Of a DNA stretch of 25,818 nucleotides, positions 1,472 to 21,827 are shown piece after piece. This DNA is from Clostridiales bacterium (GTDB lineage: Bacteria > Bacillota > Clostridia > Oscillospirales > Oscillospiraceae): assembly GCA_012516225.1 (NCBI GenBank), contig JAAYWX010000005.1:1-25818 (forward strand), read 5' to 3'. Positions within the stretch are counted from its first letter, which is position 1; each line of letters starts with the position of its first letter. Both the position numbers and the translations under genes were made by a program. A model generated the notes under the pieces. That model made no database searches and was not told where the DNA came from. It worked only from the letters and a program-made list of their open reading frames with translations.

Positions 1472-1481
1472 AAAAAATAAA

Positions 1482-1510
1482 ACGAAGCGCGGTTTAATAC
1501 CGCGCTCCGT
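1482..1510 (-). terminator. Rho-independent terminator of the PTS operon (possibly bidirectional)
   Basis: AGCGCGGT-TTAAT-ACCGCGCT stem. On the minus strand it is followed by TTTTATTTTTT. It lies between convergent genes. Confidence 0.75.
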
Positions 1511-1536
1511 CCGTCGATTCCGTACTGCGGAATGAC

Positions 1537-2007
1537 TTAGATATACAGCATAAATATGACCCCGACAGATATTAAAATAACGCCTATTACACGGCAAACT
1601 GCAACAACCCTGCGTATGGGGGTGTGCTGAAAAGTTTCAAACATCGAAATTGGGTAGGGAAGAAAAACAAAAGCTGCACCCGCAATGACAACGCCGATGT
1701 TCATAAGAAAAGACATACCGGCGGAAAGCGAACTTATTAGTATGCACGCGGCAGAGGCTAAAATTAGAAGATACATATACTTTTTCAGTCTTTTGTCATT
1801 CTCCACATAGCTTTCCGCGGCTTCTTTGCAGGAAAGTCCGCAAACAGGAAAACTTCTTGTTTTAACCCTCGCCTTGGCTATAACTGTATCATTGCCGTTG
1901 ACGGAATTCCCGCAATAAACACACCTGTCGCCGCCGGCAAACTCGATTTTATCATTTTTTGTACTTTTATTCGGCATTTTTTTTGGCAGGCGCTTTTGCT
2001 GCTTCAT
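1537..2007 (-). CDS. Hypothetical membrane protein with an N-terminal CxxC...CxxxC putative metal-binding motif
   Basis: CVYC-x23-CGLSC followed by about 3 hydrophobic segments. ATGA overlap with the ptsI stop codon. An alternative start at MPNKST is possible. Confidence 0.75.
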   Translation of the reverse strand: MKQQKRLPKKMPNKSTKNDKIEFAGGDRCVYCGNSVNGNDTVIAKARVKTRSFPVCGLSCKEAAESYVENDKRLKKYMYLLILASAACILISSLSAGMSFLMNIGVVIAGAAFVFLPYPISMFETFQHTPIRRVVAVCRVIGVILISVGVIFMLYI

Positions 2008-3734
2008 ATGCCCAGTTCCTCCAATATTTTTTCAAGCATATTCTTTGCGTCGGATATTTTGCCGGAGGATAGAATTTTATCGGTCTTTTCCATAATATCA
2101 CTTTTGGTGACTTGTGTCACTATATATTTTGTACGTCCGACAAGTGCCGGAGCAACGGAAAGCTCGTCTACACCAAAAGCACACCAGAGAGGTATAAGGC
2201 GCGGCTCGGATGCCGTTTCTCCGCAGATTCCCACCTCGATATTGTTTGCATGGGCATTGTCACATACGGTTTTTACGGCGCGCAGAACAGATACATTGCA
2301 GCTGTCATACAAATACTGTACCCGTTCATTCATGCGGTCTGTTGCCGTAGTGTACTGGATGAGGTCGTTTGAACCTATGCTGAAGAAATCGGAATGTTTT
2401 GCGAGAGCATCGGAAATCAGAACGGCTGCGGGAGTTTCAACCATTATGCCGACAGGGATGTCGGGATTGAAGGGGAAGCCCTTTTCCTCAAGTTCTGCCA
2501 TGCACTCCCTAACAAGCTCTTTGGCGCGGAGAAGCTCCTCAAGGCTTACTATCATGGGAAACATTATTTTCACATTGCCGAAAGCACTTGCGCGAAGAAT
2601 GGCGCGGAGCTGGGTTTTAAACATCTCTGTACGATCCAAGCAAAGGCGGATGGCGCGATATCCGAGGAAAGGATTGCTTTCTTTCGGCAGATCCATATAG
2701 CCAAGCTGTTTGTCTCCGCCGATGTCAAGTGTGCGGATGATAAGCTCTTTGCCGGCAGTACGAACCGCCATATCCTTATATACCTCGAACTGCTCGTCCT
2801 CGGTAGGGTAATCCGAATGACCCATATAGAGGAATTCCGTACGGAAAAGTCCGACTCCGTCACAGCCTGCCGCATCGAACGTTGCTATGCTTTCTTTATC
2901 TCCCGAATTCACGTTTACCCTTACTGGAAAGCCGTCCTTTGTGGCCGCCGGCTTAATGCGGCACTCATCATAAACTGCCTTCATCTTTGCGGCCTGACCG
3001 CTCTTAGCTTCAAATTCAGCAAGCTTTTTTGAGTCCGGGGAAACAACTGCAACACCTGCCGAACCGTCTACAAGAACTGTTTCGCCGGAAGCCAGCCGGT
3101 CAAGCATGGGACCGCAGCCGACAACGGCGGGAATACCGAGTGCCTTTGCAAGAATAACAGTGTGCGAGGTAACTCCGCCGCGCTCCGTAACCATGCCTTT
3201 AAGTCTGCTCCGGTCAAGACGGACGGTATCGGACGGAGTGAGGTCTTCGGCGAATATTATGAGATCATCGCCGACGGCTCCGGCAAAGGGGTCTCCGGAA
3301 CTGATCCCCTGAAGCTCTGACATAAGCTCACGGCAGACGTTGTTTATGTCGGCCGCGCGGGCTTTAAGATAATCGTCGTCAACGACGGAGAAGGCTTCCT
3401 CCACCTCTGCACGTTTTTTCTCGATAGCATAGGAAGCGCATACGTTTTCAGAAAGTATAATGTCCTTTACCTGACCGAAAAAAACGTCGTCTTGAATTAT
3501 TTCCTGGTAAGCTTCAAAAATTTCAGCACTCTTGTCACCGTGGGAAACACGTGCTTCCTCTGCCAGTTTTTTCAAGGTTTCATTGTATTTCTGGCGGCCG
3601 TTTTCCATAGCTTCAATTTCCGCGGCCGTATCGGAAACAAATTTTTTTTCAAGAGACAGGCTGCCTGTGCGGAATATAACGGCGTGGCCTCGCGCGCAGC
3701 CTGATGCGGCTCCAAGACCTTTTATTTCTGTCAT
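2004..3734 (-). CDS. ptsI: PEP-protein phosphotransferase (PTS Enzyme I)
   Basis: GGVTSHTVILAKALGIPAVVG (phospho-His), GVGLFRTEFLY, RTLDIGGDK, NPFLGYRAIR, GSNDLIQY, GICGE; 576 aa. Confidence 0.98.
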   Translation of the reverse strand: MTEIKGLGAASGCARGHAVIFRTGSLSLEKKFVSDTAAEIEAMENGRQKYNETLKKLAEEARVSHGDKSAEIFEAYQEIIQDDVFFGQVKDIILSENVCASYAIEKKRAEVEEAFSVVDDDYLKARAADINNVCRELMSELQGISSGDPFAGAVGDDLIIFAEDLTPSDTVRLDRSRLKGMVTERGGVTSHTVILAKALGIPAVVGCGPMLDRLASGETVLVDGSAGVAVVSPDSKKLAEFEAKSGQAAKMKAVYDECRIKPAATKDGFPVRVNVNSGDKESIATFDAAGCDGVGLFRTEFLYMGHSDYPTEDEQFEVYKDMAVRTAGKELIIRTLDIGGDKQLGYMDLPKESNPFLGYRAIRLCLDRTEMFKTQLRAILRASAFGNVKIMFPMIVSLEELLRAKELVRECMAELEEKGFPFNPDIPVGIMVETPAAVLISDALAKHSDFFSIGSNDLIQYTTATDRMNERVQYLYDSCNVSVLRAVKTVCDNAHANNIEVGICGETASEPRLIPLWCAFGVDELSVAPALVGRTKYIVTQVTKSDIMEKTDKILSSGKISDAKNMLEKILEELGI

Positions 3735-3749
3735 GCTGCTCTCTCCGTT

Positions 3750-4394
3750 CTATTTTTGACGGTAATTCTGGAACTGCCCAAGTACGACCTTAAGGTCATC
3801 ATCGCTTAAAAGTACAGGTTTGCCGGCGGTGCGGGCATAGTAATAGATTTGTGAAACGAATTCTATCTGCTGCGCGATATCCATGGTATAGGGCAGAGTG
3901 CCGCCGCAGGTCAAAAGTCCGTGATTGCCGAGCAGGCAGGCGTAATGGTCGCTGCCCATTGCGTTAAAAGCCGCTTCCGCAAGCTCATAGGTGCCAAACT
4001 GTACATAGGGGATGCAGGGAACGTCAGCACCGGAATAAGCGATAAGATAGTGCAGGGGTTCAATGCTCCAGTGCAGGCATGCCAGAGTTGTCGCAAAGGT
4101 TGAGTGCGTGTGTACAACAGCGTTTATTCCCGGTCTTCTCTGGTAAAATATTCTGTGCATATCATATTCGCTCGACGGTTTTCTGTCGCCGTCAACCTTT
4201 TCGCCGTCGGGCGTGAGAACTACGACATCTTCAGGCTTTGTAAGGTAATAGTCCATACCTGAGGGGCTTATTGCCATGAGATTTTCTTTAGGATTAAATA
4301 CGCTCAGATTGCCAAAAGTTCCGACGGTAAGACCAAGCTCCACCATTTTTTTGCCGTATTCGACAACCATTTCACGTTCTTCCTGCAGTATCAT
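3750..4394 (-). CDS. Class II aldolase/adducin family, FucA-type
   Basis: GNLS, SPSG, KPSSE, VVHTHS, LLGNHG. Start placed at ATG 4394 (ATGA overlap with the upstream gene, AAGGAG RBS). Confidence 0.9.
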   Translation of the reverse strand: MILQEEREMVVEYGKKMVELGLTVGTFGNLSVFNPKENLMAISPSGMDYYLTKPEDVVVLTPDGEKVDGDRKPSSEYDMHRIFYQRRPGINAVVHTHSTFATTLACLHWSIEPLHYLIAYSGADVPCIPYVQFGTYELAEAAFNAMGSDHYACLLGNHGLLTCGGTLPYTMDIAQQIEFVSQIYYYARTAGKPVLLSDDDLKVVLGQFQNYRQK

Positions 4395-5488
4395 TCCAAA
4401 CACACTCCTTTTATTTTGTCGAAGTTTACTATTCGATCTGTAAGTCCTTTTTCGATTATTTTATCTGTTTCGCGCATGAGAAGATACGGAGACATAGGTA
4501 TGGCGTCCACTGTTGCCCCCGCAATATGCGGTGTTATCACAACGTTGTCAAGACCGGAAAAACCACTGTTTTCCGGCAAGGGCTCTTTATCGAAAACATC
4601 CAGTGCTGCACCGGCTATGCGGTGGTTTTTAAGTGTATCGATAAGGTCTGCCTGGTTTACAAGACCTCCCCTTGATGTATTTATAAAATATGCGGTAGGC
4701 TTCATCAAATCAAAATATTTTTTATTTATAATCCCTTCGGTTTCCGGAGTGAGCCTGAGGTGCAGGCTTATTATATCCGCTGTTGAGAACAGCTCTTCCA
4801 TTGAACCTACCATTTTTATATCTGCAAGGCCGTTCCTCTCCAGTCGTTCTTTTGAAATATATTCGTCAAAGGCGATCAGGGATACGCCAAGCGCCTTTAG
4901 GCGCACAGCCAGTTCGATGCCGATATTTCCTATGCCGATAAGTCCGACCGTCATATTTGACAGGGTAGATGTATATTCGGAATTTGGATATACTTTTTCC
5001 CATTTTCCGTCTATAAGAAGATGATGGGACGTGGAAATGTTCCTTGTTACGCTCAAAATAAGCCCAAGTGCGAATTCGGCGACGGGGATGGCGTTTCTTA
5101 TTACATTGACCACAGGTATACCGCGGTTGTTTGCGGCATTCAAGTCAATATGCTCAAGACCACCTCTGCAGGTCAATATGGCCTTGAGATTAGGGGCTTT
5201 TTCTATTAATGCAGCGGGAACGGGGTTGAAATGCGTTACCAGAACTGTGCAGTCTTCCATAAGCTGCTCTAATCCGTCAGCCCATGCTTCGGCCTCAGCT
5301 CCGTGACGTTCGATATTAAGCTGACGTTCCGCAAATTCGCTTTTGTCGGGCGTTCCCCAGTATGCTTTGCTTATTTTGCCTATGCTGATTTTTGAGGAGC
5401 GCACCGCCGCTTCCATTGTGTCGGGGGAAACAAAAGCGTCCCCGACCAAAACAATATTCTGAGGTTTTTTTGTGAGTGTGTTTAGCAT
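4391..5488 (-). CDS. D-isomer-specific 2-hydroxyacid dehydrogenase fold (SerA-like) oxidoreductase
   Basis: GLIGIGNIG, INTSRGGLV, LDVFDKEP, TPHIAGAT. Start placed at ATG 5488 (GGAGGT RBS). Confidence 0.9.
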   Translation of the reverse strand: MLNTLTKKPQNIVLVGDAFVSPDTMEAAVRSSKISIGKISKAYWGTPDKSEFAERQLNIERHGAEAEAWADGLEQLMEDCTVLVTHFNPVPAALIEKAPNLKAILTCRGGLEHIDLNAANNRGIPVVNVIRNAIPVAEFALGLILSVTRNISTSHHLLIDGKWEKVYPNSEYTSTLSNMTVGLIGIGNIGIELAVRLKALGVSLIAFDEYISKERLERNGLADIKMVGSMEELFSTADIISLHLRLTPETEGIINKKYFDLMKPTAYFINTSRGGLVNQADLIDTLKNHRIAGAALDVFDKEPLPENSGFSGLDNVVITPHIAGATVDAIPMSPYLLMRETDKIIEKGLTDRIVNFDKIKGVCLE

Positions 5489-5507
5489 GGATACCTCCAA
5501 TAATATG

Positions 5508-5541
5508 GAAAGCCGCTGTTGTTTTATCAACAGCGGCTTTC
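5508..5541 (-). terminator. Intra-operon 14 bp perfect hairpin (attenuator or mRNA stabiliser)
   Basis: GAAAGCCGCTGTTG-N6-CAACAGCGGCTTTC between the IIC gene and the dehydrogenase; only a short U-tract on the minus strand. Confidence 0.5.
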
Positions 5542-5589
5542 TGTCTGCGATCTCTTTATATAGCCGCTAAAAGCTGGTAAAATTTATAC

Positions 5590-7020
5590 TCAGACAACCT
5601 GCGGCTCGCTGCCGTTTCCTGCGTCCTCAACGCCGTAAGTTTCAAGCCAGTTGACAATGGCTTCTTTGTGCTTTTTGAACAGGAAGTAGAGGACAAAGTA
5701 AAGAATTACAACCGCACCGATGATAATCGGGTTCTGGGAATAGAACGCATAGAAGAGACCCGCCATCAAGGGGTGGCACATGATACCGAAGCTGATAACA
5801 TACATTGTTGCGTTTTCTGGAAGAACAAATCCGGCCTGAACGGCAACGTCCGTAAATGTTGGAGCAAGCTGGGAAGCTATGATAAGACCAAGGCTGAACC
5901 AGATTGCACCGGTGATAAGGCTCTTTGCAATGTTGCCGTGGGAAATGCAGACGAAAATCTCAACCATGTACGGCAGAGCAACAAGGTCAAGCATGGGGAG
6001 AACTTTGTTGCCGGGAAGAATGAAAGCAAGGAGAAGCATAATGGGGATGAGAAGAATGCCGGTTACGAGGGTGTTGGGTTCGCCGTAACCTGCGGCATCG
6101 TTAACCGACAGATACCACTCGCGGTTTTTGCCGCTTTCGATAGCTTTTGCTTTGTAAGCGTCCGTGAGGGAAGAGAATGCAGACGCGAAAATTCCTCCGA
6201 CTTTCGGGAAAACAGCCATGACGGCCGCGGTGGATACTGCTGAAGCTGTGATTTTTCCCCAGCTTTCAAGTGCGCCAAGAGCGTTGAAGTAAGCGATAAT
6301 GCCTATCAGAGCGCCGATTACAAGACCGATGAACATGGGCTCACCAAGAAGTCCGAATCTTTTCTGGATTGTTTCGGCATCAAGCTTTATTTTGTTGAAG
6401 CCTATTTTGCCGAGCAGCCAGTTCATCAGGATTGCGAAAGGCACGCCTTCCAAATGGTGAGGAGCTGTCATGCAGCAGCTTGGATACTGGTAGTGTGTGG
6501 ACCAGCGTTTTGCTGCAACTTCGCTGAACAAAAGAATGTAGAGAAGCTGCATAACCATGACCGCAAGAGCAAGCCACATGCTTTTTGTGAGAAGATAAAG
6601 CATGGAGCCCCAAACCATGAAGGAATAGTTGTTCCAAAGGTCACTGGCCATGAAAACGTTTGTCCATTTTACAAGGAAGAGTACTATCTGCAGCACTATA
6701 GCAATGCCGATGAATACAAGACCTACTGTTGTTGAATAGGCAATTACGGAAGTGGACTGCCAGCCGGTATCAAGAACTGGCAGGTTGACGCCTGAACTTT
6801 CTACCATTCGGGTTACGACGGGCGCGATTATCCCGCCGTAGCTGTTGATGACGAGGTTGAATCCAGTTAAACCGACTGCGCAGAGTAAAGCGGAATTAAA
6901 TGCGCTTTTCGGCTTTACGCCAAGGAACAGAGCGATAATGAACAGGATCAGTGGAACGAACACAGGCGCTCCGAGCGTTGAGAATACGTTGCTTAGACTT
7001 TGAAAAAATGAGCCCAACAA
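5590..7020 (-). CDS. PTS galactitol-family EIIC permease (GatC-like)
   Basis: 476 aa polytopic membrane protein with DTGW, DLWNNYSF, LLGEPMFIG and ILPGNKVLPMLDL, which match GatC-family motifs. TTG start with GAGGAGG RBS. Confidence 0.92.
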   Translation of the reverse strand: MLGSFFQSLSNVFSTLGAPVFVPLILFIIALFLGVKPKSAFNSALLCAVGLTGFNLVINSYGGIIAPVVTRMVESSGVNLPVLDTGWQSTSVIAYSTTVGLVFIGIAIVLQIVLFLVKWTNVFMASDLWNNYSFMVWGSMLYLLTKSMWLALAVMVMQLLYILLFSEVAAKRWSTHYQYPSCCMTAPHHLEGVPFAILMNWLLGKIGFNKIKLDAETIQKRFGLLGEPMFIGLVIGALIGIIAYFNALGALESWGKITASAVSTAAVMAVFPKVGGIFASAFSSLTDAYKAKAIESGKNREWYLSVNDAAGYGEPNTLVTGILLIPIMLLLAFILPGNKVLPMLDLVALPYMVEIFVCISHGNIAKSLITGAIWFSLGLIIASQLAPTFTDVAVQAGFVLPENATMYVISFGIMCHPLMAGLFYAFYSQNPIIIGAVVILYFVLYFLFKKHKEAIVNWLETYGVEDAGNGSEPQVV

Positions 7021-7092
7021 AATAAACCCTCCTCAAAAATATTTTCCATCGTTGCCGATGAATCCGATTTTTCTGTCTGCCTTTTACACGCT

Positions 7093-7386
7093 TTATTTAG
7101 CGTTCAGAATTTTAAGGCAGTCGTCGATAACCTGCTGTTCGGCAAGCCCTGTCAGCAAACCAACAGCGTTAACCTTAGGAATGCCGTAATCCTTGTAAAC
7201 AGGGGAAACACAAGCGATCAATGAGAAACCGCCGGCAGCCAAGGCCGATTCAACCGAATTCGGACTTGCTTCAACAGGAGTTACTGCATAGCCGTGCTTT
7301 GCAAGCTTTTCTTTGAGCTTGTTTGCGACCATGGCGGAACTTACCGTACCCGAGCCGCAGACACATAGGATTTTGACATTTTTCAT
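7093..7386 (-). CDS. PTS galactitol-family EIIB (GatB-like)
   Basis: KILCVCGSGTVSS phospho-Cys loop; 97 aa. Confidence 0.92.
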   Translation of the reverse strand: MKNVKILCVCGSGTVSSAMVANKLKEKLAKHGYAVTPVEASPNSVESALAAGGFSLIACVSPVYKDYGIPKVNAVGLLTGLAEQQVIDDCLKILNAK

Positions 7387-7435
7387 TAGTGATACATCTC
7401 CTTACTTCTTTCTTCTTAAATATTAAAAATAATAT

Positions 7436-7891
7436 TTACCCCATATATTTCATTGCCGCTTCGTAAAGCTTGTCCTTATCGGAGGCGGCGCTCAGCTCTT
7501 CTACCGCTTCTTCGTTGGTGAATACGCGCATTACTTTTTGGTGCGTGTCAAGCTGTGCGTCCGGATCTTTTATGGCCATCATGAAAATCAGCTGCGCTTG
7601 AACTTTTGTATCAGGATCACCCATGTGCCTGAATTCCACCGGGTCGGAGAGCTTTGCCACGCAAACGGCTGGAATATTAACATGTATGCCAGCGGTATGG
7701 GGCATGGCAACTCCTATGGTTTTAAGCTGCAGCCCGGTAGGATATTCGGTTTCTCTCTCCAAAACGGCAGGCAGGTAAGTATCTTTGACATAGCCGCCGT
7801 TTATAAGGTAAGCGCCGATGGTTTTTATTGCGTCTTCGGCATTTTCGGCTTTAACGCCGCAGACTATAAGATCTTTGGTTATAGTGCTCAA
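7436..7891 (-). CDS. PTS EIIA, fructose/mannitol/galactitol type (GatA-like)
   Basis: VLERETEYPTGL and VAMPH (phospho-His). TTG start with AGGAG RBS. Confidence 0.93.
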   Translation of the reverse strand: MSTITKDLIVCGVKAENAEDAIKTIGAYLINGGYVKDTYLPAVLERETEYPTGLQLKTIGVAMPHTAGIHVNIPAVCVAKLSDPVEFRHMGDPDTKVQAQLIFMMAIKDPDAQLDTHQKVMRVFTNEEAVEELSAASDKDKLYEAAMKYMG

Positions 7892-7905
7892 GTTAATGCT
7901 CCTTC

Positions 7906-8166
7906 CTATTCGGTCAGCCCATTGATAAAGGATATAAGCTCTTCGCCTACCAGATTTTCGTTTTCGCCTTCAACTATAACATTAACTTCAGTTCCGCACT
8001 TTATACCTGCGGAAAGCAGTGAAATGATGCTCTTAGGATCAATGCTGCTGCCTCCGACTTCAATAGTGATTTTTTCGGGGAATTTTTTGCAAAAAGCTGT
8101 AAGCTGCGATGCGGGACGAGCATGCAGACCAGTGGGATTTTTGATTGTAGTTGCCTGTTTAAACAT
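7906..8166 (-). CDS. ptsH: HPr phosphocarrier protein
   Basis: GLHARPA (His15) and KSI (Ser46 motif); 86 aa. Confidence 0.95.
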   Translation of the reverse strand: MFKQATTIKNPTGLHARPASQLTAFCKKFPEKITIEVGGSSIDPKSIISLLSAGIKCGTEVNVIVEGENENLVGEELISFINGLTE

Positions 8167-8194
8167 ATTTCATATCTCCGTTTTTTAAAATTAT

Positions 8195-8226
8195 TCATTT
8201 TACTTTGGAAACAAATGTGCTATACT
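8195..8226. promoter_or_regulatory. Divergent promoter region with a candidate SorC-type operator
   Basis: Plus strand: TTTACT (8199-8204), 16 bp spacer, TG-c-TATACT (8221-8226). Minus strand: CACATTTGTTT-CCAA-AGTAAAATGA, which resembles the repeats at 10399 and 10562. Confidence 0.45.
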
Positions 8227-8266
8227 TTCAACGGATAAAGGCATATATTCCGGGAGGAAAGGCATA

Positions 8267-9205
8267 ATGGATGACAAAAAAGAACTTTTGATCCGCGTTG
8301 CGGAACTGTACTATGAGGAAAACCTAAACCAGAACGACATAGCAAAAATCCTTAATACTTCAAGACCGACAGTATCGCGGCTTCTTGACGAGGCGAAAGA
8401 TACCGGCGTTGTGGAAATTATTGTCCACAGTCCTATTTTGAAAGATGCGCAGCTTGCGTATGCTCTTCGCAAAAAACTTGGCCTGAGGGACGCTGTTGTC
8501 GTTTCGGGTGAATACAAATACGAGAAAGCAATCCGCCGCTGCTGCGAAACAGCGCTTCAGTATTTCTATGCGATCATGGAGAACAACACCACCATAGGGA
8601 TAAGCTGGGGAACCGTACCTCACCAGTTTTGCGAAATGCTTGAAGACCGTGAGTATTATAATGTCAATGTCGTCCAGATGGTCGGCTGTCTTGGAACGGG
8701 GAACCCAAAGCTTGATGGGCTCGAACTCGCGCTTCGCATATCAAGAAAGCTTGGCGGAACATACTCCAACATATATGCTCCCGTATATGTGGAGAACAAA
8801 ATTGTCCATGATTATCTTATGGCTGAGCCGCAGATAGCGGCGACAATTAAGAAAGCTATGCATACTGACATAATTATTACAGGAGTAGGGTCATTTGACG
8901 CAGGTACTTCACTGCAGCTTTCCGGAAACCTGAACGATAAGGACCGGATGGAGCTTATCGAACAGGGGGCTGTCGGACATCTTCTTGCCAGACCTTATGA
9001 CAAAGACGGAAATGAGATAATCCAGAGAGGACGATATACTATAGGCGCTCCGCTGGAGGCAATGAAGCATGCTCAGTGGTCGGTCGGAGTAAGCGCGGCA
9101 GAGTTTAAGGCTGAAGCCGTGCTCGCGGCGGTCCGCGGGGGATATCTCAACACGCTCGTCGTTGATGAAATACTTGCAAAGAAGCTTTTGGAGTTGGCCG
9201 ACTGA
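8267..9205 (+). CDS. SorC/DeoR(Gram-positive)/LsrR-family sugar-binding transcriptional regulator
   Basis: N-terminal 'VAELYYEENLNQNDIAKILNTSRPTVSRLL', IGISWG, VQMVG, and C-terminal 'AAVRGGYLNTLVVDE'. Confidence 0.95.
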   Translation: MDDKKELLIRVAELYYEENLNQNDIAKILNTSRPTVSRLLDEAKDTGVVEIIVHSPILKDAQLAYALRKKLGLRDAVVVSGEYKYEKAIRRCCETALQYFYAIMENNTTIGISWGTVPHQFCEMLEDREYYNVNVVQMVGCLGTGNPKLDGLELALRISRKLGGTYSNIYAPVYVENKIVHDYLMAEPQIAATIKKAMHTDIIITGVGSFDAGTSLQLSGNLNDKDRMELIEQGAVGHLLARPYDKDGNEIIQRGRYTIGAPLEAMKHAQWSVGVSAAEFKAEAVLAAVRGGYLNTLVVDEILAKKLLELAD

Positions 9206-9220
9206 AGTTCCTTTTCCTAT

Positions 9221-9250
9221 ACCGCGGAAACTTATGTTTCCGCGGTTTTT
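9221..9250 (+). terminator. Rho-independent terminator
   Basis: ACCGCGGAAAC-TTAT-GTTTCCGCGGT followed by a T-run. Confidence 0.85.
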
Positions 9251-9326
9251 TGTCTTTTTTGTCGATTGGCTATTCTAAACTACCAGTTTTAATCTTATTT
9301 GTCAATCCGTTCCGTTAGCAGATGCC

Positions 9327-10373
9327 TCAATCCATTCCAGGATTGCAGCATATGACTGCTTTAACGCCTTCTCCATTGAGCGAGGCATTGAATGCATCGC
9401 GCCAGTCTTTAAGATCCGTGATAAGAGTTACGATTTTTTCTGGCACTACCAGTCCTTCTTTAAGCAGATGAATTGAAGTCACCCAAGAACTGGGCTTTTG
9501 GCTGCGTGAACCTACATATACTATTTCTTTATGCAGAATATAATCGGCACGTATTGGAACTTTAGCATCGGCGAAAACGCCCATTTGAACAACTTTGCCC
9601 TTACGACGGGTTATTTCAAGCGCTTTGTTCGCTGCGGCGACAGAACCCGAACATTCAAACGAAATGTCAACTCCGACTCCATTCGTAAGTTCTTTCACAA
9701 TTTCGGAAAGATCTTCTTTTTCTTGGTTTACAACAATGTCCGCACCGTTGGCTTTGGCAATGGCAAAGCGTTCAGCATCTGTGGAAAGACCTGCAACTAT
9801 TACCGTGGCTTTTAGGGACTTTGCCACTTGGGCCACCATCTGTCCGATAGCTCCGGCGCCGAAAATACAAACGACATCTCCCTTTTTGACATCACCTTTT
9901 TCGATAACTGCATGGACGCCGCAGGCGAGAGGTTCGGTAAGGGAAGCGGATAAAAGACTTACATTATCGGGAAGAATATGAACGCTTTCTTCTCTGCTCA
10001 CCAAATATTCCGCCATACTTCCGTTTATCTGCGTGCCTATGCCCTGACGGTTTCCACAAAGGTTATAATCCTTGCTCAGACAGCTTGGACATATGCCGCA
10101 GGTTTTAAAAGTCGTTTCGCTGGTTACTCGGTCTCCAACCTTAACATTTTTTACGTCTGGCCCTACGGCTACAACTATGCCGGAAAACTCATGGCCCAAA
10201 ACTACAGGCGGCTTCGTGCTGGAATAAGTTCCTTTGAAAGCATGGAGGTCGGTTCCGCAGACGCCGCTGTATGCAATTTTTATTTTTACCAAGTCGCCAA
10301 CGGCTTCCGGTTCTGGAATCTCTGTATAAATCATATTATCATAGCCGCTGGCTGTTTTAACTACCGCTTTCAT
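9327..10373 (-). CDS. Zn-dependent medium-chain polyol(-phosphate) dehydrogenase (sorbitol DH/GatD-like)
   Basis: GVCGTDLH, LGHEFSG, structural-Zn motif CGICPSCLSKDYNLC, EPLAC, GAGAIG. Start placed at ATG 10373 (MKAVVK). Confidence 0.93.
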   Translation of the reverse strand: MKAVVKTASGYDNMIYTEIPEPEAVGDLVKIKIAYSGVCGTDLHAFKGTYSSTKPPVVLGHEFSGIVVAVGPDVKNVKVGDRVTSETTFKTCGICPSCLSKDYNLCGNRQGIGTQINGSMAEYLVSREESVHILPDNVSLLSASLTEPLACGVHAVIEKGDVKKGDVVCIFGAGAIGQMVAQVAKSLKATVIVAGLSTDAERFAIAKANGADIVVNQEKEDLSEIVKELTNGVGVDISFECSGSVAAANKALEITRRKGKVVQMGVFADAKVPIRADYILHKEIVYVGSRSQKPSSWVTSIHLLKEGLVVPEKIVTLITDLKDWRDAFNASLNGEGVKAVICCNPGMD

Positions 10374-10398
10374 GTTAACCCCCATCATTGTTATTGTT

Positions 10399-10426
10399 TT
10401 GTCATTTGTTCGTTTCTGTGAAATTA
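10399..10426 (+). promoter_or_regulatory. Candidate operator, copy A
   Basis: TTGTCATTTGTTC-GTTTC-TGTGAAATTA; direct repeat of 10562-10589. Confidence 0.55.
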
Positions 10427-10448
10427 AGTTTCTATCTATTCTGGCTCA

Positions 10449-10477
10449 ATTGTAGCCAAACATTCGACTTTCGTCAA
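10449..10477 (-). promoter_or_regulatory. Sigma-A promoter for the Zn-dehydrogenase gene
   Basis: Minus strand: TTGACG, 17 bp spacer, TACAAT. Confidence 0.7.
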
Positions 10478-10561
10478 CGATATTTTGTCAGTACTGACGA
10501 ATTTGTATAAATATCTAAGTTTAGCATGCTCTTTTAGTCAAAAATAGCGAATAAAATAGTG

Positions 10562-10590
10562 TTGACATTTGTTCAGTAATGTGAAATTAT
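10562..10590 (+). promoter_or_regulatory. Candidate operator, copy B, overlapping a probable -35 of the transketolase-like operon
   Basis: TTGACATTTGTTC-AGTAA-TGTGAAATTA. Perfect TTGACA; a weak TG-extended -10 (AATTAT) lies 17 bp downstream. Confidence 0.55.
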
Positions 10591-10701
10591 ATTTACAGAA
10601 AGATACTGCCATATTCCAACCTTCTGGAGCTTTGGCTATATAGTATTAAATTGCAAATTGCGCGGTTAAAGATAAATATATTTGGAAGGGAGAACTGCTG
10701 T

Positions 10702-11604
10702 ATGTCAGACATTAAATATTCAAACGAGCAGATCGCGCGGGCGGCAACCAATATCCGCAAGCAGATCCTCGGCATAGCCCTCGAAAGGGGAGGGTGTTAT
10801 CTCACTCAAGCGTGTTCATCGGCCGAGATAGTAGCCACATTATATATGGATATACTCAATATCGGACCAAGTCTTGGAAACCCGGAAGCACAGCCTTTCC
10901 CGGGAGTCCCTTCTCCGGACAACATGGATTATCCGAAAGGCTCGCTTTATAACGGGGCGCATGATCCGGACAAAGACCGTTTCTTTGTTTCCTGTTGCCA
11001 TTACGCATCCGTTATTTACTGCGCTCTTGCGGAGTGCGGCAGAATTTCACACAGCGCACTCAAAAAATTCAATGTAGACGGATGGAACATGGAGATGATA
11101 GGAGCGGAGCACTCTCCCGGGTTTGAAAACACCGCAGGCTCTCTCGGGCAAACCGTTTCCATTGCCGCTGGTACAGCGCATGCATATAAACTTAAAGGCT
11201 GCACAGGAAAAATTTACTGTATGCTTTCCGATGGGGAACTTGAGGAAGGCCAGGCGTGGGAATGCTTCCAGGCAGCAGCATTCTATAAACTTGATAACTT
11301 TGTCATTTATGTCGATGTAAACGGACAACAGGTTGAAGGCTGGACAAAGGATGTTATGAACATTGAACCCATGATTGAACGCATGAAGGCTTTCGGATGG
11401 GAAGCGGTGGAAGTAAACGGCCATGATATAGATGCCCTTAAAGCCGCGGCGAAAACGCCCCATGAAGGCAAACCACTTATGATTCTTTGCAAAACTTCAC
11501 CGGCACAGGGAATTCCTCTTTTGGAAAAGATGATCCCGAAGCACTTTGTGACGATTACAGAGGCCGACAGAGCAGAATTTAAAAAGTTTTATGACGAAAT
11601 GTAA
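10702..11604 (+). CDS. Transketolase-like ThDP enzyme, N-terminal (ThDP-binding) subunit, atypical
   Basis: DRFFVSCCH, GSLGQ, SDGELEEGQAWE...N (ThDP/Mg motif), VNGHD. Start placed at ATG 10702 (GGAAGGGAG RBS). Confidence 0.9.
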   Translation: MSDIKYSNEQIARAATNIRKQILGIALERGGCYLTQACSSAEIVATLYMDILNIGPSLGNPEAQPFPGVPSPDNMDYPKGSLYNGAHDPDKDRFFVSCCHYASVIYCALAECGRISHSALKKFNVDGWNMEMIGAEHSPGFENTAGSLGQTVSIAAGTAHAYKLKGCTGKIYCMLSDGELEEGQAWECFQAAAFYKLDNFVIYVDVNGQQVEGWTKDVMNIEPMIERMKAFGWEAVEVNGHDIDALKAAAKTPHEGKPLMILCKTSPAQGIPLLEKMIPKHFVTITEADRAEFKKFYDEM

Positions 11605-11619
11605 AGTGAGGTGGCAGCA

Positions 11620-12609
11620 ATGAAAATAGAAACAAATACACATTCAAAAAACATTCTTAGATTTGCTGAAAAGCACCCGGAAGTAGTTGTTATGTCGGCT
11701 GATTTGGGCACATCATGCGAAGTTAAGGAATTTGCGAAAGTTTATCCGGACCGTTATTTTTCCATGGGGATTGCCGAGCAGAACATGTGCTCATGGGCCG
11801 CAGGGCTTGCAAGAGAAGGTTTCCGCCCGATGCTGCACACGTTCGGCGTGTTCCTGTACCGCCGCATACTTGACCAGATTGAAATGAGTCTGGCTTATCC
11901 CAATCTGCCGGTTGTTCTTATTGGTTTTGTGCCGGGAATAACAACTCCGGGCGGCGTTTCTCACCAGTCCACAAATGATATAGGCGTGCTCCGTACTGTT
12001 CCTAATATGGCTATTTTCGATATCGGTGATGCAACGGAGATAGAAGGTGTGCTCGATATTGCTTATAATTTCAACGGCCCTGTATATATAAGAATGCTCC
12101 GCAAAGACGTACCCCGTTTCTTCCCGGCAAATGAGCCGATGCAATTCAACCGTGCACGCATATTGTCGGAAGGAACCGACATTGCGCTTCTTTCCTCATC
12201 AGTCTGCACGGAAGAAGCAATGCGAGCCACCGCGGCACTGAAGGCTAAGGGACTCTCAATACAGCATTTGCATGTATCCACTCTCAAGCCTTTTACGGAT
12301 CCTCAAGTGGTTGAAGCCTGTGAAAAAGCAAAATACGGCGTTATAACGATTGAAAATCACACCGTTATAGGAGGGCTTGGAACTGCGGTGGCGGAAGTGA
12401 TGGCGGAAAACGGAATAGGCAAGAAACTTGTCAAGGTAGGCTTGCAGGATACCTATGCACACGGAGCCTCCAAAATGTACCTTCTCAGAAAATATGGTAT
12501 GGACGCTATGACTCTGATAAAGGGCGTTGAGAAGCTGACAGGCGAGAATTTCGGAATTGAAGAACACGATCTTGAGGAAATCCGTTTTGAAGACTTCACT
12601 ACCGTATAA
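11620..12609 (+). CDS. Transketolase-like enzyme, C-terminal (pyrimidine-binding and C-terminal domain) subunit
   Basis: SADLGTS, MGIAEQNM (catalytic Glu), SHQ, GPVYIR, ENHTVIGGLG. ATG 11620 with GAGGTG RBS. Confidence 0.92.
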   Translation: MKIETNTHSKNILRFAEKHPEVVVMSADLGTSCEVKEFAKVYPDRYFSMGIAEQNMCSWAAGLAREGFRPMLHTFGVFLYRRILDQIEMSLAYPNLPVVLIGFVPGITTPGGVSHQSTNDIGVLRTVPNMAIFDIGDATEIEGVLDIAYNFNGPVYIRMLRKDVPRFFPANEPMQFNRARILSEGTDIALLSSSVCTEEAMRATAALKAKGLSIQHLHVSTLKPFTDPQVVEACEKAKYGVITIENHTVIGGLGTAVAEVMAENGIGKKLVKVGLQDTYAHGASKMYLLRKYGMDAMTLIKGVEKLTGENFGIEEHDLEEIRFEDFTTV

Positions 12610-13273
12610 AAAGAACGGGTATAAAGCCTGTATTTTTGATCTGGACGGTACGGTTGTAAATACTTTGCCGACAGTTCATCACTACTGCAACATTACTCTG
12701 GATCGATTCGGATTCTCCGCCATAAGCGAGCTGCAGTGCCGGAATTTATGCCGCCTGCCAATTAAAGAGTTCTATCATGAGCTGCTCAGATTGGGAGGTT
12801 GTCCGCCTGAAAATATTGAGAAGCTTGCGCCGCAGGCGCGCGATTATGATATAAAACGCTACCTTGAGAACCCTGCCGTAGGCAGTATGCCATATGAGGG
12901 AGTACCCGAACTTCTGCAAGAATTGAAGAGCAGAGGAATTATCCTCGGTGTTCTGACGAACAAGCCGCACGCCATAGCACAGTCGCTTATAGGCAGCCTG
13001 TATCCCGGTATTTTTGACAGCGTAACGGGACAGACTCCCGATACCATATCCAAACCTGATCCGAGATGCCTTTTAAATTACATCGGAGACATGGGACTTG
13101 CTAAAACCGAATGCCTTTATGTAGGAGATAGTGACGTTGATATGAAAACGGCAAAGGCGGCCAGAGTAGATGTTGCTGCAGTTACATGGGGATTTCAGTC
13201 CAGAGAACATTTGCTTGAATATAATCCGGAATATGTTTTCGACAAACCCGCAGAATTACTGAAACTGTTTTGA
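12587..13273 (+). CDS. HAD-superfamily phosphatase (Gph-like)
   Basis: IFDLDGT, LTNK, KPDP, VGDSDVD. Start uncertain: TTG 12587 (GAGG 9 nt upstream) or TTG 12557. Both overlap the upstream gene. Confidence 0.9.
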   Translation: MKTSLPYKKNGYKACIFDLDGTVVNTLPTVHHYCNITLDRFGFSAISELQCRNLCRLPIKEFYHELLRLGGCPPENIEKLAPQARDYDIKRYLENPAVGSMPYEGVPELLQELKSRGIILGVLTNKPHAIAQSLIGSLYPGIFDSVTGQTPDTISKPDPRCLLNYIGDMGLAKTECLYVGDSDVDMKTAKAARVDVAAVTWGFQSREHLLEYNPEYVFDKPAELLKLF

Positions 13274-13314
13274 CCAGAATAATTATCAAATAATTATCAG
13301 GAGGTTTTTAAGCC

Positions 13315-13995
13315 ATGTTTGAAGCACAAAAGCGCGAAATTATAAAAGCGGGAATAAGCCTTGATCGTTACGGACTGATTGCCCTTTCGGGCGGCAACGT
13401 AAGCGCCCGCATGGAAACTGGAGAAATACTCGTAACGCCATCAGGAATGATCTATGAAGATATGGTTGAAGACGATATCGTCGTAATGGATATTGACGGA
13501 AACATCATCGAAGGTTCGCGCAAGCCGTCCTCCGATACAGACGCAATTCTTTATATTTTCAAACACCGCCCCGATTTGAAAGCGGTTATTCATACGCACC
13601 AGCCCTATGCGACTGCCATAAGCCTCATTGAGGATGAGTTCCGCGCAGATCTGACCACTCTTGCAAATGCATGCGCCGGAAGCGTAAAGGTTACGCCTTA
13701 CAGTTCCCCCGGAAGCGAGGATATGGGCGTTGACACCGTAAAGTATCTTGGCAGCAGTCTGGCGGTTATTCTTGCTCATCACGGAGTTATTACAGTAGGT
13801 ACCTCGGTTAAGCAGGCGCTCTATGCCGCAGTGTATATGGAAGAAGCTGCGCGAGGCTATCTTGCCGCAAGAGCCGTTGGACCGATTAAGCACCTTTCGG
13901 ATGCCCAAATTCAGCAGGCTGTCGATGTCTTCAAGTATGTCGGACAGGGAACAGGCAGAATACCGAAAGAAATGACAAAGCGCATTACCAATTAA
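13315..13995 (+). CDS. Class II aldolase fold, AraD/UlaF-type (L-ribulose-5-P 4-epimerase-like)
   Basis: GGNVS, TPSG, KPSSDT (Asp, as in AraD, rather than the Glu of FucA), IHTHQ, AHHG. AGGAGG RBS. Confidence 0.85.
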   Translation: MFEAQKREIIKAGISLDRYGLIALSGGNVSARMETGEILVTPSGMIYEDMVEDDIVVMDIDGNIIEGSRKPSSDTDAILYIFKHRPDLKAVIHTHQPYATAISLIEDEFRADLTTLANACAGSVKVTPYSSPGSEDMGVDTVKYLGSSLAVILAHHGVITVGTSVKQALYAAVYMEEAARGYLAARAVGPIKHLSDAQIQQAVDVFKYVGQGTGRIPKEMTKRITN

Positions 13996-14043
13996 CCTTT
14001 ATAGATTCCATAATTCCTCTCCATATTCCTCTTTCTTTTTAAA

Positions 14044-14104
14044 TATTTGCACCGGATATTGCTTTCATTTGACGCACTTATGCCGGTCATATCCGGTGCA
14101 AATA
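14044..14104. repeat. 16 bp perfect inverted repeat with a 29 nt loop
   Basis: TATTTGCACCGGATAT (14044-14059) and ATATCCGGTGCAAATA (14089-14104). Confidence 0.8.
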
Positions 14105-14210
14105 GGGTATTAGCCAAATTAATTAGCCAACTCCTTTTTTCGCTGATATAGAGATAGAGAAAAGAAAACAGCGAAGAGGGCGTGAAATTCAGCGCCCGTT
14201 ATAATTTGAA

Positions 14211-14290
14211 AAGCCATTTTCAGCACCCCATATATCCCGCCGGAGAAGACGGGAACAGAGAGAACGGTGCAGAAAATGGCTTCTTTTTAT
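14211..14290. repeat. 17 bp inverted repeat (1 mismatch) enclosing a second hairpin; possible terminator or structured RNA
   Basis: AAGCCATTTTCAGCACC (14211-14227) and GGTGCAGAAAATGGCTT (14266-14282). Inner TCCCG/CGGGA helix. T-rich tails on both strands. Confidence 0.7.
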
Positions 14291-14430
14291 TTAAAATAAA
14301 GAAATAGCAATTTCATCGTATCATCAATTTTTATAGACTGGAAACTTTAAAAAGACAACCGCAAGACTTTCTTCCCTATACAGAAAAACTGAAGAATTTT
14401 ATAGATAATAAGAACTAAGCAAGGCGAATA

Positions 14431-16918: not shown

Positions 16919-16986
16919 ATCACACATCCGTTTTTTAAGTGCCGTCAGTTTCGGCAATCTATTTTTCCTAAGTATTTTATACCTTT

Positions 16987-18593: not shown

Positions 18594-18630
18594 GAGCTGC
18601 TCCTTCCGAAAACAGTAAAATATATTCTTC

Positions 18631-18659
18631 TTTATTTATCGGGGGATGAATGGTATAAT
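18631..18659 (+). promoter_or_regulatory. Sigma-A promoter for cls
   Basis: TTTATT, 17 bp spacer, TG-g-TATAAT (extended -10). Confidence 0.6.
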
Positions 18660-18757
18660 TCCAAATAGTCTGACACAGTAGGTGAGGCACCAGAAAAACA
18701 GCAAGACCGAATTTGCGAAAACGCAGCCGGCATGTCAGATGCCGGCATAGGCAGGGA

Positions 18758-20317: not shown

Positions 20318-20403
20318 CCGGCAGCGCCCTCAAATCGTCAAATAAAAGCTTTCCGCGCAAACTAAGGCGTATTTTAATACTACACTGAAAGGTAAGCAGA
20401 AAT

Positions 20404-21786: not shown

Positions 21787-21827
21787 ATAATGTTCTGAAA
21801 AAGAAAACAGGGCAAGGAGTGTGGGAA

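Follow-up and report, generated by a model that had tools for sequence, protein, structure and literature searches.

A conserved PTS-linked catabolic gene cluster of gut and digester Clostridia with an atypical transketolase-like enzyme

An uncultured bacterium from an anaerobic digester carries a compact gene set for sugar uptake and breakdown, including a transketolase-like enzyme (TK) that probably, judging from its rewired pocket, splits sugars without the usual hydroxyl on the end carbon. A TK-like enzyme of this kind has not previously been described. The set occupies positions 1537-13995 of the window (the whole 25,818-nt stretch of DNA that was analysed) and is a widespread, conserved feature of many gut and digester Clostridia rather than a peculiarity of the source genome. 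The assignment that we tentatively prefer is breakdown of a polyol or pentose derivative with a deoxy or thio terminus, such as 5-deoxyribitol or L-fucitol. The initial annotation called the system probably uncharacterised, and a literature search indeed turned up no paper giving the cluster a substrate. All the gene families that it named were recovered with Pfam and NCBIfam at the positions given below. Its four divergent units also stand, but its count of 13 genes becomes 14 ORFs, since the one at 1537-2007 (-) had been left out.

The TK is split into an N subunit (10702..11604, +; Tyr-26 clade) and a C subunit (11611..12609, +), both assigned by Pfam/NCBIfam, alignment and tree; the start at 10702 is preferred to an alternative ORF start at 10651 because homologues are 300-304 aa long. 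Alignment with E. coli TktA bears out the atypical pocket noticed earlier. His26 is replaced by Tyr, Arg358 by Asn, His461 by Phe and Asp469 by Gly, while position 100, whose assignment depends on how a remodelled loop (MEMIGAEHSPG) is aligned, carries no His. A His five residues downstream of this position could take over. The cofactor residues are intact, R520, S385, H473 and H261 are retained, and the pocket changes are invariant throughout a monophyletic clade that lies apart from TktA, AptAB and the canonical split TK (SGHPG and GHP motifs) that the MAG also encodes. Identity with AptAB was considered and rejected, as the two subunits are 30% and 34% identical to AptA and AptB, which fall outside the clade. 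In engineered E. coli TK, H100L/F admits a donor with a methyl group replacing CH2OH, a hydrophobic residue at position 100 being required for the methyl-bearing donor (bioRxiv 10.1101/719906), and D469 variants accept non-hydroxylated aldehydes (PMC3657141).

The same pocket signature recurs in a sister clade with 45-51% identity; a value of 45-50% to this RLP-linked clade is no guarantee of the same substrate. Its members occur in TKN-TKC-RLP trios at 12 of 13 genome loci and at nine of ten full-context loci overall. Their RLP resembles DeepYkr proteins, with 3qfw as best PDB match (E = 8e-75), and MtnK and MtnA equivalogs are often found near the trios. The product of this RLP type is reportedly 1-methylthio-xylulose-5-P. 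The RLP/MtnK/MtnA context thus suggests that the donors are compounds such as 1-deoxy- or 1-methylthio-xylulose-5-P. At one locus (L132), TKN-TKC-RLP directly adjoins a Gat-type PTS with an IIC 48% identical to that of the window.

Uptake is encoded by the first unit, in the order HPr, IIA, IIB, IIC, 2-hydroxyacid dehydrogenase (2-HADH), FucA/DrdA-type aldolase (Ald1), Enzyme I (EI) and a small zinc-ribbon membrane protein, all on the minus strand. It starts with HPr (7906..8166; PF00381), the only one found in the MAG, and continues with an EIIA-2 type IIA (7436..7891; PF00359; GatA closest, below cut-off), IIB (7093..7386; PF02302) and a galactitol-family IIC (5590..7020; EIIC-GAT, PF03611, 224 bits). 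The IIC scores 257.6 against TIGR00827, under the cut-off of 542; it is 29-30% identical to three E. coli Gat-family IICs and, among the E. coli IICs compared, gave no UlaA match. EI (2004..3734) contains three PEP-utiliser domains, exceeds the TIGR01417 cut-off (565.8 bits against 341.7) and is likewise the only one found. The proposal of a self-contained PTS is borne out, in that no EI, HPr or EII genes were found in the 88%-complete MAG outside the window. Pfam and NCBIfam detected in the cluster no kinase domain, no GatY/Z-type aldolase and no UlaG/D/E domain, as the initial annotation had held, and its view of a PTS-dependent catabolic system without a kinase is supported.

The last gene of this operon encodes a conserved protein of 156 aa (1537..2007, -) with an N-terminal four-Cys zinc ribbon and C-terminal hydrophobic (transmembrane) helices. 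It has no match in Pfam or NCBIfam; its Atlas neighbours are TRASH/DUF2116-like, C29, C32, C56 and C60 are kept across 14 homologues, and its single-sequence fold is of low confidence. The 2-HADH (4391..5530, -; Pfam 2-Hacid_dh_C) is PGDH-like, with P. horikoshii PGDH (1wwk) as best PDB match and GIGNIG, R287, E316 and H335 conserved, and falls under every NCBIfam cut-off. The TTG at 5530 sits within a 14-bp GC-rich hairpin (5508..5541, -) between the IIC and 2-HADH genes, so the true start of 2-HADH is probably near 5488. This hairpin, picked up by a terminator-like scan and devoid of a clean T-run, is possibly an attenuator or an RNA-stability element.

Two proteins have the class II aldolase fold. 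Ald1 (3750..4403, -; start likely at 4394) passes the NF005302 cut-off (284 bits against 264) and is closest to DrdA, the 5-deoxyribulose-1-P aldolase, scoring 243 bits with the B. thuringiensis enzyme (6BTD) and 185 with S. pneumoniae FucA. Every catalytic residue of FucA is retained in the alignment (S71, S72, E73, H92, H94, Y113, F131, H155, F206 and Y209), and its family suggests that it would form DHAP and an aldehyde. The AraD-like Ald2 (13315..13995, +; nearest family PRK06557, 191.8 bits against a cut-off of 251) is probably a sugar-phosphate epimerase or aldolase. The AraD-type Asp metal ligand, Thr116 and a C-terminal Y-G-Q are present, but AraD D120 is replaced by Asn and K42 by Thr, and Ald2 therefore may not be an epimerase. 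The Zn-dependent MDR dehydrogenase (ADH; 9327..10388, -; ADH_N and ADH_zinc_N), a monocistronic unit, conserves the zinc ligands C44, H66 and E67 as well as C97, C100, C103 and C111. Its closest families are L-threonine 3-dehydrogenase and YdjJ, all below cut-off; threonine and butanediol dehydrogenases act on CH3-CHOH- groups, which weakly favours a deoxy substrate. A HAD-IA, phosphoglycolate-phosphatase-like enzyme (12557..13273, +; Pfam/NCBIfam) lies between the TK and Ald2 genes in the same unit and is an optional member, found in 10 of the 25 full-context loci.

The remaining unit encodes a SorC-family repressor (8267..9205, +; PF04198 and HTH), whose best PDB matches are B. subtilis DeoR (108 bits), SorC (89) and LsrR (78). 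The four-unit layout agrees with the promoter and terminator scan, which placed promoter-like sites at 10477-10449 (-) and 10562-10590 (+) and terminators at 9221-9246, following the SorC gene, and at 1512-1480. In the regulatory region (10393..10594, +) a 39-nt repeat occurs twice (10393-10431 and 10556-10594), and the TK promoter falls within the second copy; two matches were reached in none of 100 shuffles, and the region is conserved at loci L017 and L022. These repeats, with the common core ATGTTC/TTGTTC, are a candidate SorC operator.

The search for the same gene set in other genomes, suggested with the initial annotation, found it again at no fewer than 25 loci in metagenomes from digesters and guts. 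Over the 25 full-context loci, ADH is found in 24, SorC in 23, Ald2 in 22 (60-76% identity), IIA in 20, IIB and 2-HADH in 19 each, IIC and Ald1 in 18 each, and the small zinc-ribbon protein in 14. The invariant core consists of ADH, TK and the AraD-like protein, with SorC also counted in; full copies of the cluster occur at L017/L018, L020, L022, L024 and L052. Uptake is mostly by a Gat-type PTS and sometimes by an ABC transporter with an FGGY kinase, as in L051, where ADH, TK and Ald2 are kept at 67-73% identity. The kinases of such non-PTS variants resemble xylulokinase and LsrK, so a ketose or diketone fits as well as a polyol.

Read together, these features would describe a SorC-controlled, self-sufficient PTS island for a small polyol-like carbohydrate whose far end is not CH2OH. 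From their protein families, EI, HPr, IIA, IIB and IIC would import the compound and phosphorylate its sole free primary hydroxyl. In the proposed core route, ADH would oxidise the carbinol beside the unusual end to a 1-deoxy (1-X) 2-ketose phosphate, the AraD-like protein would set the C4 configuration from L to D, and the TK-like enzyme would cut C2-C3 to give glyceraldehyde-3-P or erythrose-4-P and a hydroxyethyl-type C2 unit on ThDP. In an accessory branch, the PGDH-like dehydrogenase may oxidise C2 beside the phosphate, and Ald1 may split the resulting (3R,4R)-ketose-1-P into DHAP and a small aldehyde. The HAD phosphatase would be optional, and the divergent promoters are probably kept repressed by SorC as long as no phosphorylated intermediate has built up. 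The two branches look redundant, and the scheme gives no fate for the C2 unit; deoxy-polyols are not known as abundant nutrients. Among the candidates listed earlier, the deoxy class, L-fucitol included, gains from the RLP/MtnK/MtnA link, position 100 and the DrdA likeness, whereas nothing specific favours plain pentitols or a tetritol. The FucA-type aldolase on which the L-fucitol argument partly rested, Ald1, is absent or replaced in some variants and lies outside the core.

A system for an ordinary pentitol or hexitol, be it galactitol, D-arabitol, ribitol or xylitol, would also resemble known polyol operons in its Gat-family PTS and MDR dehydrogenase. Its dehydrogenases would make a normal ketose phosphate, Ald2, with its AraD-type ligands, would epimerise it (e.g. 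L-ribulose-5-P, tagatose-6-P), and the TK, with R520, S385, H473 and H261 in place, would lead into the pentose-phosphate pathway. Such a system is nevertheless rather unlikely, given that a canonical split TK is already available in the MAG, that His26, His100, His461, Asp469 and Arg358 are missing clade-wide, that the GatC, GatD and AraD NCBIfam models all stay below cut-off, and that the sister clade is bound to RLP/MtnK/MtnA and not to polyol genes. The D-apiose or apiitol route, where two oxidoreductases would stand in for the isomerase and the TK would split apulose-4-P into DHAP and a ketol unit, seems most improbable. In the E. coli SE15 apiose cluster a split TK likewise occurs with a SorC-type regulator, two oxidoreductases probably act in this way, and AptAB also lacks R358, H461 and D469; yet AptA and AptB are no closer to the two subunits than ordinary split TKs are, AptA has the His26 and His100 missing here, AptAB branches elsewhere, and Ald1, Ald2 and the RLP link would have no role.

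Other readings assign the TK a different chemistry. It might be a DXS-like or hydroxypyruvate-dependent carboligase that scavenges the Ald1 aldehyde with pyruvate or another 2-oxo donor, ADH then reducing the acyloin. The C subunit matches E. coli AptB and Dxs, not TktA, in the genome search, the clade joins Dxs in the tree, albeit with long branches, and H100/D469 changes let E. coli TK take pyruvate and non-hydroxylated aldehydes (bioRxiv 10.1101/719906). The ADH resembles butanediol and threonine dehydrogenases, and an acetoin-dehydrogenase-like complex adjoins the cluster in L053. Such a role is nonetheless quite unlikely, since L053, L019 and L051 keep ADH, TK and Ald2 without Ald1, the RLP-type trios have no aldolase, and Ald2 is left without function. 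The Aco-like complex of L053 would also suit 2-C-methyl-D-erythritol catabolism, in which PTS-formed MEP is oxidised by ADH to methylerythrose-4-P, rearranged by Ald2 through retro-aldol/aldol steps to DXP (a two-enzyme reverse DXR) and split by the TK. This route accounts for exactly the ADH, Ald2 and TK core and suits a pocket for a methyl ketone donor, but it is very unlikely: it comes from mechanistic reasoning alone, no DXR or DXR-II homologue is present, such a rearrangement is known for no AraD-family enzyme, and Ald1 and 2-HADH remain without a role. Lsr-like processing of autoinducer-2 (DPD) would involve C5 phosphorylation, reduction of the diketone to 1-deoxy-L-ribulose-5-P, epimerisation to DXP by the AraD-like protein, and cleavage or onward transfer by the TK. 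The SorC/LsrR-family regulator, the Lsr layout of L051 (SorC, SBP, ATPase, two permeases and FGGY kinase) and the L086 kinase, whose best NCBIfam match is AI-2 kinase, are in its favour; ribose-derived DPD, being L at C4, would presumably need an AraD-type 4-epimerase, and LuxS was not found in the MAG, which could therefore belong to an AI-2 consumer. Its probability is low all the same, as every kinase match is far below cut-off (XylB equal or better in L051), LsrF and LsrG are absent, LsrR ranks only third among structural relatives of the regulator, linear polyols are the known substrates of Gat-type PTSs, and 14 genes seem a lot for a signal present at micromolar levels.

Among known systems, E. 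coli gatYZABCDR shares with the cluster Gat-family IIA/IIB/IIC, a Zn-dependent MDR dehydrogenase acting after PTS phosphorylation and the lack of a separate substrate kinase. The cluster differs in having neither tagatose-6-P kinase nor GatY/GatZ aldolase, an IIC and an ADH far under the GatC and GatD model cut-offs, and a SorC-type instead of a DeoR-type regulator; it adds the TK-like enzyme, two PF00596 proteins, 2-HADH and its own EI and HPr. Pentitol PTS operons for D-arabitol, xylitol and ribitol are reportedly found in Listeria, Enterococcus and Lactobacillus. In these operons a Gat-type PTS and polyol-phosphate dehydrogenases feed the pentose-phosphate pathway, and the Listeria operon has a transketolase gene. 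They include a canonical TK along with ribulose-P 3-epimerase and RpiB; the cluster has none of the three, its TK belonging to the Tyr-26 clade.

AptA/AptB of D-apiose catabolism (Carter 2018; E. coli SE15, PMC13001218) resemble the cluster in a dedicated split TK, a divergent SorC-type regulator and the loss of several phosphate-site residues, but form a separate lineage. In the DrdK-DrdI-DrdA salvage of 5-deoxyribose, the DHAP shunt (PMC6079011), DrdA is the protein most like Ald1 (roughly half the residues identical by eye in the alignment), which would likewise give DHAP and a small aldehyde. Here, by contrast, the PTS phosphorylates, MtnK-like kinase and MtnA-like isomerase are lacking, and Ald1 is dispensable in some variants. 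The Lsr system (LsrR, LsrK, LsrACDB, LsrF, LsrG) offers a SorC/LsrR-family repressor, a transporter and kinase layout shared by L051, and a substrate that is a 1-deoxy sugar derivative; the cluster differs in the absence of LsrF/LsrG, in variant kinases far under the LsrK cut-off and in the window's Gat-type PTS. The MTA-isoprenoid shunt of Rhodospirillum rubrum is said to proceed through a DeepYkr RLP and then a cupin methylsulfurylase. The sister TK clade lies beside such an RLP with MtnK and MtnA, and the TK-like enzyme would take the place of the cupin. The window cluster has ADH and the AraD-like protein rather than RLP, and the RLP product, a xylulose-5-P analogue without the C1 hydroxyl, matches the TK pocket.

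The island at 1537-13995 is a widespread variant of the PTS polyol operon, centred on a distinct transketolase (TK) lineage. Six-frame ORFs combined with Pfam and NCBIfam scans bear out the gene inventory of the initial annotation. Its division into four transcription units stands, while its count of 13 genes has to be raised to 14 ORFs. The minus-strand operon encodes, in order, HPr, IIA, IIB, IIC (EIIC-GAT), a PGDH-like D-2-hydroxyacid dehydrogenase (2-HADH, 4391-5530), a FucA/DrdA-type class II aldolase (Ald1, 3750-4403), Enzyme I (EI) and a 156-amino-acid protein (1537-2007). The SorC regulator gene, on the plus strand, is followed by a strong terminator (9221-9246), and a Zn-dependent MDR dehydrogenase (ADH, 9327-10388, minus strand) forms a stand-alone unit. 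The plus-strand operon comprises the two genes of a split TK-like ThDP enzyme (TKN and TKC, 10702-12609), a HAD phosphatase and an AraD-like class II aldolase-fold protein (Ald2, 13315-13995). The absence of a sugar kinase, of GatY/Z and of UlaG/D/E is confirmed, as the Pfam and NCBIfam scans detect no such domain in the island. Further along the window, 14431-25818 has a housekeeping look, with genes for a DUF2344 protein and a radical SAM protein, for peptidases of the M50 and M23 families and for a PLD protein resembling cardiolipin synthase.

The spacer between ADH and TK contains promoter-like sites in both directions and two copies of a 39-nt repeat, the second of which is the TK promoter itself. 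Because the ATGTTC/TTGTTC core of this repeat is also found in orthologous spacers, and once in the HPr-SorC spacer, the repeat is a reasonable candidate operator. The SorC protein combines an N-terminal HTH with a PF04198 sugar-phosphate-binding domain and belongs to the SorC/DeoR(Bsu)/LsrR family. Between the IIC stop and the 2-HADH start, a 14-bp perfect GC-rich hairpin without a clear T-run (5508-5541) spans the TTG at 5530. The hairpin may act as a partial terminator, or as a site of processing, and so set two levels of expression within the PTS operon. Since 2-HADH homologues have about 360 residues, the 2-HADH start is probably near 5488; TKN starts at 10702. Rfam models over 1300-14500 reveal no riboswitch or leader, and the one match (PYLIS_2, E = 0.82) is read as chance.

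The search for the gene set in other genomes, which the initial annotation had suggested, shows that the whole set recurs on other contigs carrying TKN relatives. TKN has more than 2000 database relatives, and the best 120 of them, all at least 64% identical, come from Oscillibacter, Caproiciproducens, Anaerovoracaceae, Peptococcaceae, Lachnospiraceae and even Planctomycetota bins. A metagenome scan for TK relatives gave at least 556 matches, and 80 loci were kept. Among 25 loci with full flanks, roughly de-replicated, ADH is present in 24, SorC in 23 and Ald2 in 22, followed by IIA (20), IIB and 2-HADH (19 each), IIC and Ald1 (18 each), HPr (15), the 156-residue protein, which ends the PTS operon (14), HAD (10) and EI (6). 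According to these counts, the invariant core is ADH, TK, Ald2 and SorC. L076, L089 and L102 are loci from the human gut, a hint that there may be cultured carriers. A contig pattern scan with 2-HADH yielded relatives at no more than 39% identity and no copies of the island. Metagenomes from anaerobic digesters and sludge contain DNA nearly identical to the searched stretch 8267-13995; nine runs from six studies match half or more of the words sampled from it, and the public runs listed as containing it include no RNA run.

In one related locus (L051), an SBP, an ATPase, two permeases and an FGGY kinase take the place of the PTS; ADH, TK and Ald2 are 67-73% identical to those of the window, and the 2-HADH (36%) and class II aldolase (26%) are different. 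In another (L086:1657-10895, also L087), the ADH operon extends into an FGGY kinase, a Cys/Met-family PLP enzyme and an AgcS amino-acid carrier, an association that may point to a substrate linked to sulfur or amino acids. Ald1 is absent from L053, and L019 has ADH-SorC-TK only. Throughout the loci compared, the 2-HADH gene comes right after the phosphorylating gene, be it IIC or a kinase. The island copy of L053 adjoins an acetoin-dehydrogenase-like E1alpha/E1beta/E2/E3 set (L053:12029-19653), which is accompanied by a lipoate ligase/radical SAM gene and has a SorC regulator to itself. At L023:10001-14309, an unannotated 185-residue protein and the dihydroxyacetone-kinase subunits Dak1/Dak2 come after a TK of the window type; upstream of this TK lie RbsD, an ABC transporter, MtnK, MtnA, a RuBisCO-like protein (RLP) and a class II aldolase.

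In a PDB comparison, the N subunit of the TK aligns only over residues 89-281, with 6yak as best match (E = 2e-34). The concatenated subunits were examined in an alignment, numbered after E. coli TktA, that included TktA itself, AptAB, Dxs and 15 relatives. The ThDP/Mg2+ residues expected of EC 2.2.1.1 (D155, N185, E411, H66, H261 and H473) are kept and invariant. The substrate channel departs from that class: His26 is replaced by Tyr, Arg358 by Asn, His461 by Phe and Asp469 by Gly, and the His100 loop reads MEMIGAEHSPG, hydrophobic and with no His at position 100, while Ser385 and Arg520 are kept. This pocket pattern is invariant throughout the clade, and no NCBIfam TK model reaches its cut-off. 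In a maximum-likelihood tree, 20 sequences with Tyr-26 share one long branch (support 99/98) that leaves out TktA, AptAB and the canonical TK of the window's metagenome-assembled genome (MAG) and divides into two groups (99/97 each). The reaction of this lineage is probably undescribed. In engineered E. coli TK, acceptance of pyruvate comes from H100L/F, the Leu at 100 packs on the methyl of hydroxyethyl-ThDP, and D469 variants prefer non-hydroxylated aldehydes (bioRxiv 10.1101/719906; PMC3657141). Given this behavior of mutants at positions 100 and 469, the natural pocket looks suited to a donor with CH3 or CH2-X, and not CH2OH, at C1.

The strongest clue to function comes from the second, or sister, group of the Tyr-26 lineage. 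Of 400 genomes sampled from the phylum, 13 encode TKs 45-51% identical to that of the window with the signature Tyr-26/Phe-461/Gly-469, and in 12 of these the RLP gene directly follows the TK genes, as it does in metagenome loci. Outside the window's MAG, the sample contains only this RLP-type TK and none of the window type. The TKN-TKC-RLP arrangement holds almost always (L026-L038 and L113-L133, e.g. L028:7275-10446), often with MtnK and MtnA equivalogs nearby; they adjoin the trio in L028, L116, L119 and L133, and the window-type TK in L023. The best solved relative of the RLP is 3qfw (E = 8e-75), which we take to be a DeepYkr-type RLP of Rhodopseudomonas. DeepYkr RLPs reportedly (work of Erb, 2012) turn methylthioribulose-1-P into 1-methylthio-xylulose-5-P, an analogue of xylulose-5-P in which the C1 hydroxyl is missing. 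With 5-deoxyribulose-1-P as substrate, the RLP would produce DXP. The window-type and sister groups are tied together by L132:3-8244, where HPr, EI, IIB and a Gat-type IIC (48% identical to that of the window) lie directly upstream of TKN-TKC-RLP-HAD on one strand, with no dehydrogenase, an arrangement in which a PTS would supply the RLP-type module. A literature search returned no paper describing the island or the TK-RLP pairing.

Ald1 scores 284 with NF005302 (cut-off 264), which places it with FucA/DrdA. It gives 243 bits to B. thuringiensis DrdA (6BTD), a 5-deoxyribulose-1-P aldolase (PMC6079011), 185 to pneumococcal FucA and 126 to E. coli FucA. All FucA catalytic residues are retained, namely the ligands H92, H94, H155 and E73, Tyr113′ and the C-terminal Tyr. 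Sequence alone does not separate FucA from DrdA here, and the enzyme should convert a (3R,4R)-ketose-1-P into DHAP and a small aldehyde. The acid/base pair of AraD is formed by Asp120′ and Tyr229′. Ald2 possesses the AraD-type ligands (Asp76, His95, His97 and His171), Thr116 and the C-terminal Y-G-Q, with Asp120 changed to Asn and Lys42 to Thr, and falls below the cut-off of all L-ribulose-5-P 4-epimerase models (AraD/UlaF/SgbE); it appears epimerase-like, with epimerase activity not assured. The PGDH-like 2-HADH stays below the PGDH (211.5 versus 454) and PdxB (85 versus 434) equivalog cut-offs and is predicted to be an active 2-hydroxyacid dehydrogenase, since its catalytic Arg/Glu/His triad and NAD motif are intact. 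ADH has both zinc sites and comes closest to the threonine dehydrogenase and YdjJ families. The 156-residue protein combines a conserved 4-Cys zinc ribbon with two or three membrane helices (pLDDT 57 in a single-sequence AlphaFold model).

The host MAG (2.2 Mb, 491 contigs, 88% complete) contains no EI, HPr or EII genes elsewhere, and of 41 relatives, only 12 have an EI that passes the cut-off. No close copy of the island dehydrogenase was found among 40 relatives, and the nearest one, in a single genome, is 44% identical. A canonical split TK, carrying SGHPG and GHP motifs, is encoded on another contig (C141:2121-4865), directly downstream of a paralogous 2-HADH 35% identical to that of the island, which makes a second dehydrogenase-TK pair in the MAG. 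Dxs and an MtnA equivalog are present; RLP, MtnK, Dak and LuxS were not found in this 88% complete assembly. The MtnA equivalog lies at the end of contig C211 (L134:3629-4618), and a third class II aldolase stands beside a Zn-ADH on C127 (L135:769-2477); together they may constitute a DHAP-shunt-like salvage route of the host.

The island is tentatively read as catabolising a polyol-like compound with a deoxy or thio end, through reaction steps that we infer as follows. The PTS would phosphorylate the sole primary hydroxyl, and ADH would oxidise the carbinol beside the unusual end to yield a 1-deoxy (1-X) 2-ketose phosphate. Ald2 would then invert C4, as phosphorylation of a ribose-derived skeleton at its former C1 would leave it L-configured, the same problem that AraD faces. 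The TK-like enzyme would release GAP or E4P and a C2 unit, with 2-HADH and Ald1 forming an accessory DHAP-shunt-like branch. A bolder and less probable reading is that the Tyr-26 clade represents a new ThDP enzyme cleaving analogues of xylulose-5-P with no C1 hydroxyl (1-deoxy- or 1-methylthio-xylulose-5-P, the DeepYkr products); the window's island would be the import version of such a route.

Several other explanations have to be weighed against catabolism of a deoxy or thio compound. An ordinary polyol route is rather unlikely. The uptake genes belong to the PTS galactitol (Gat) family (TC 4.A.5), with an EIIC-GAT IIC and separate IIB (PF02302) and IIA (PF00359), and the IIC is 29-30% identical to three E. 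coli Gat-family IICs; galactitol-specific models are missed (TIGR00827, 257.6 versus a cut-off of 542; GatA, 81.6 versus 139; GatD, 143 versus 550), and domain scans find neither F_bP_aldolase nor PfkB in the island, so it does not match the galactitol-specific system (GatABC, GatD and GatYZ). The L-ascorbate (Ula) system is rejected, since the 14 ORFs lack UlaA-type IIC, UlaG, UlaD and UlaE domains and the IIC has no UlaA match. The overall interpretation of the initial annotation, a self-contained PTS-dependent polyol or sugar system, is supported in part. A tetritol route (erythrulose phosphates), one of its candidates, is dropped along with a formaldehyde/DHA-synthase role prompted by Dak1/Dak2 of L023, because the Dak1/Dak2-TK link is seen in one locus only.

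Processing of AI-2/DPD is improbable. The FGGY kinase of L086 has AI-2 kinase as its best match, far under the cut-off, and the kinases of variant loci score 127-144 bits versus 528 required for LsrK; LsrK, LsrG and LsrF are absent from the window, which places it outside the Lsr system, and LsrR is not singled out for the SorC protein in the PDB ranking. Equally improbable is a TK acting as an aldehyde-scavenging carboligase, a role to be set beside the aldehyde preference of D469 variants. Use of methylerythritol through a two-enzyme reverse DXR is very unlikely, and an apiose-type route least likely of all. The reference AptA/AptB pair of the apiose pathway is that of E. coli SE15 (PMC13001218); the window's subunits are 30% and 34% identical to it, AptA retains His26 and His100, and AptAB lies outside the clade, so that membership is rejected.

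If the Tyr-26 clade does cleave such C1-deoxy or methylthio analogues, anaerobes would possess an oxygen-independent path that returns SAM-derived ribose by-products (methylthioribose, 5-deoxyribose and perhaps AI-2) to central metabolism. ADH and the AraD-like epimerase of the island would then take the place of RLP and make exogenous reduced or modified forms of these by-products usable as food. The anoxic disposal of S-adenosylmethionine by-products is an open problem, and since the TK lineage is steadily paired with RLP genes and those for methylthioribose, it may include a ThDP-dependent step that has yet to be described. The identity of the substrate would put another nutrient or signal on the map of anaerobic communities, and would also provide a natural enzyme taking methyl-bearing donors, an ability sought by transketolase engineers. 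PTS polyol operons are familiar; here, a module widespread in gut and digesters is built around a TK that has lost five canonical substrate-binding residues.
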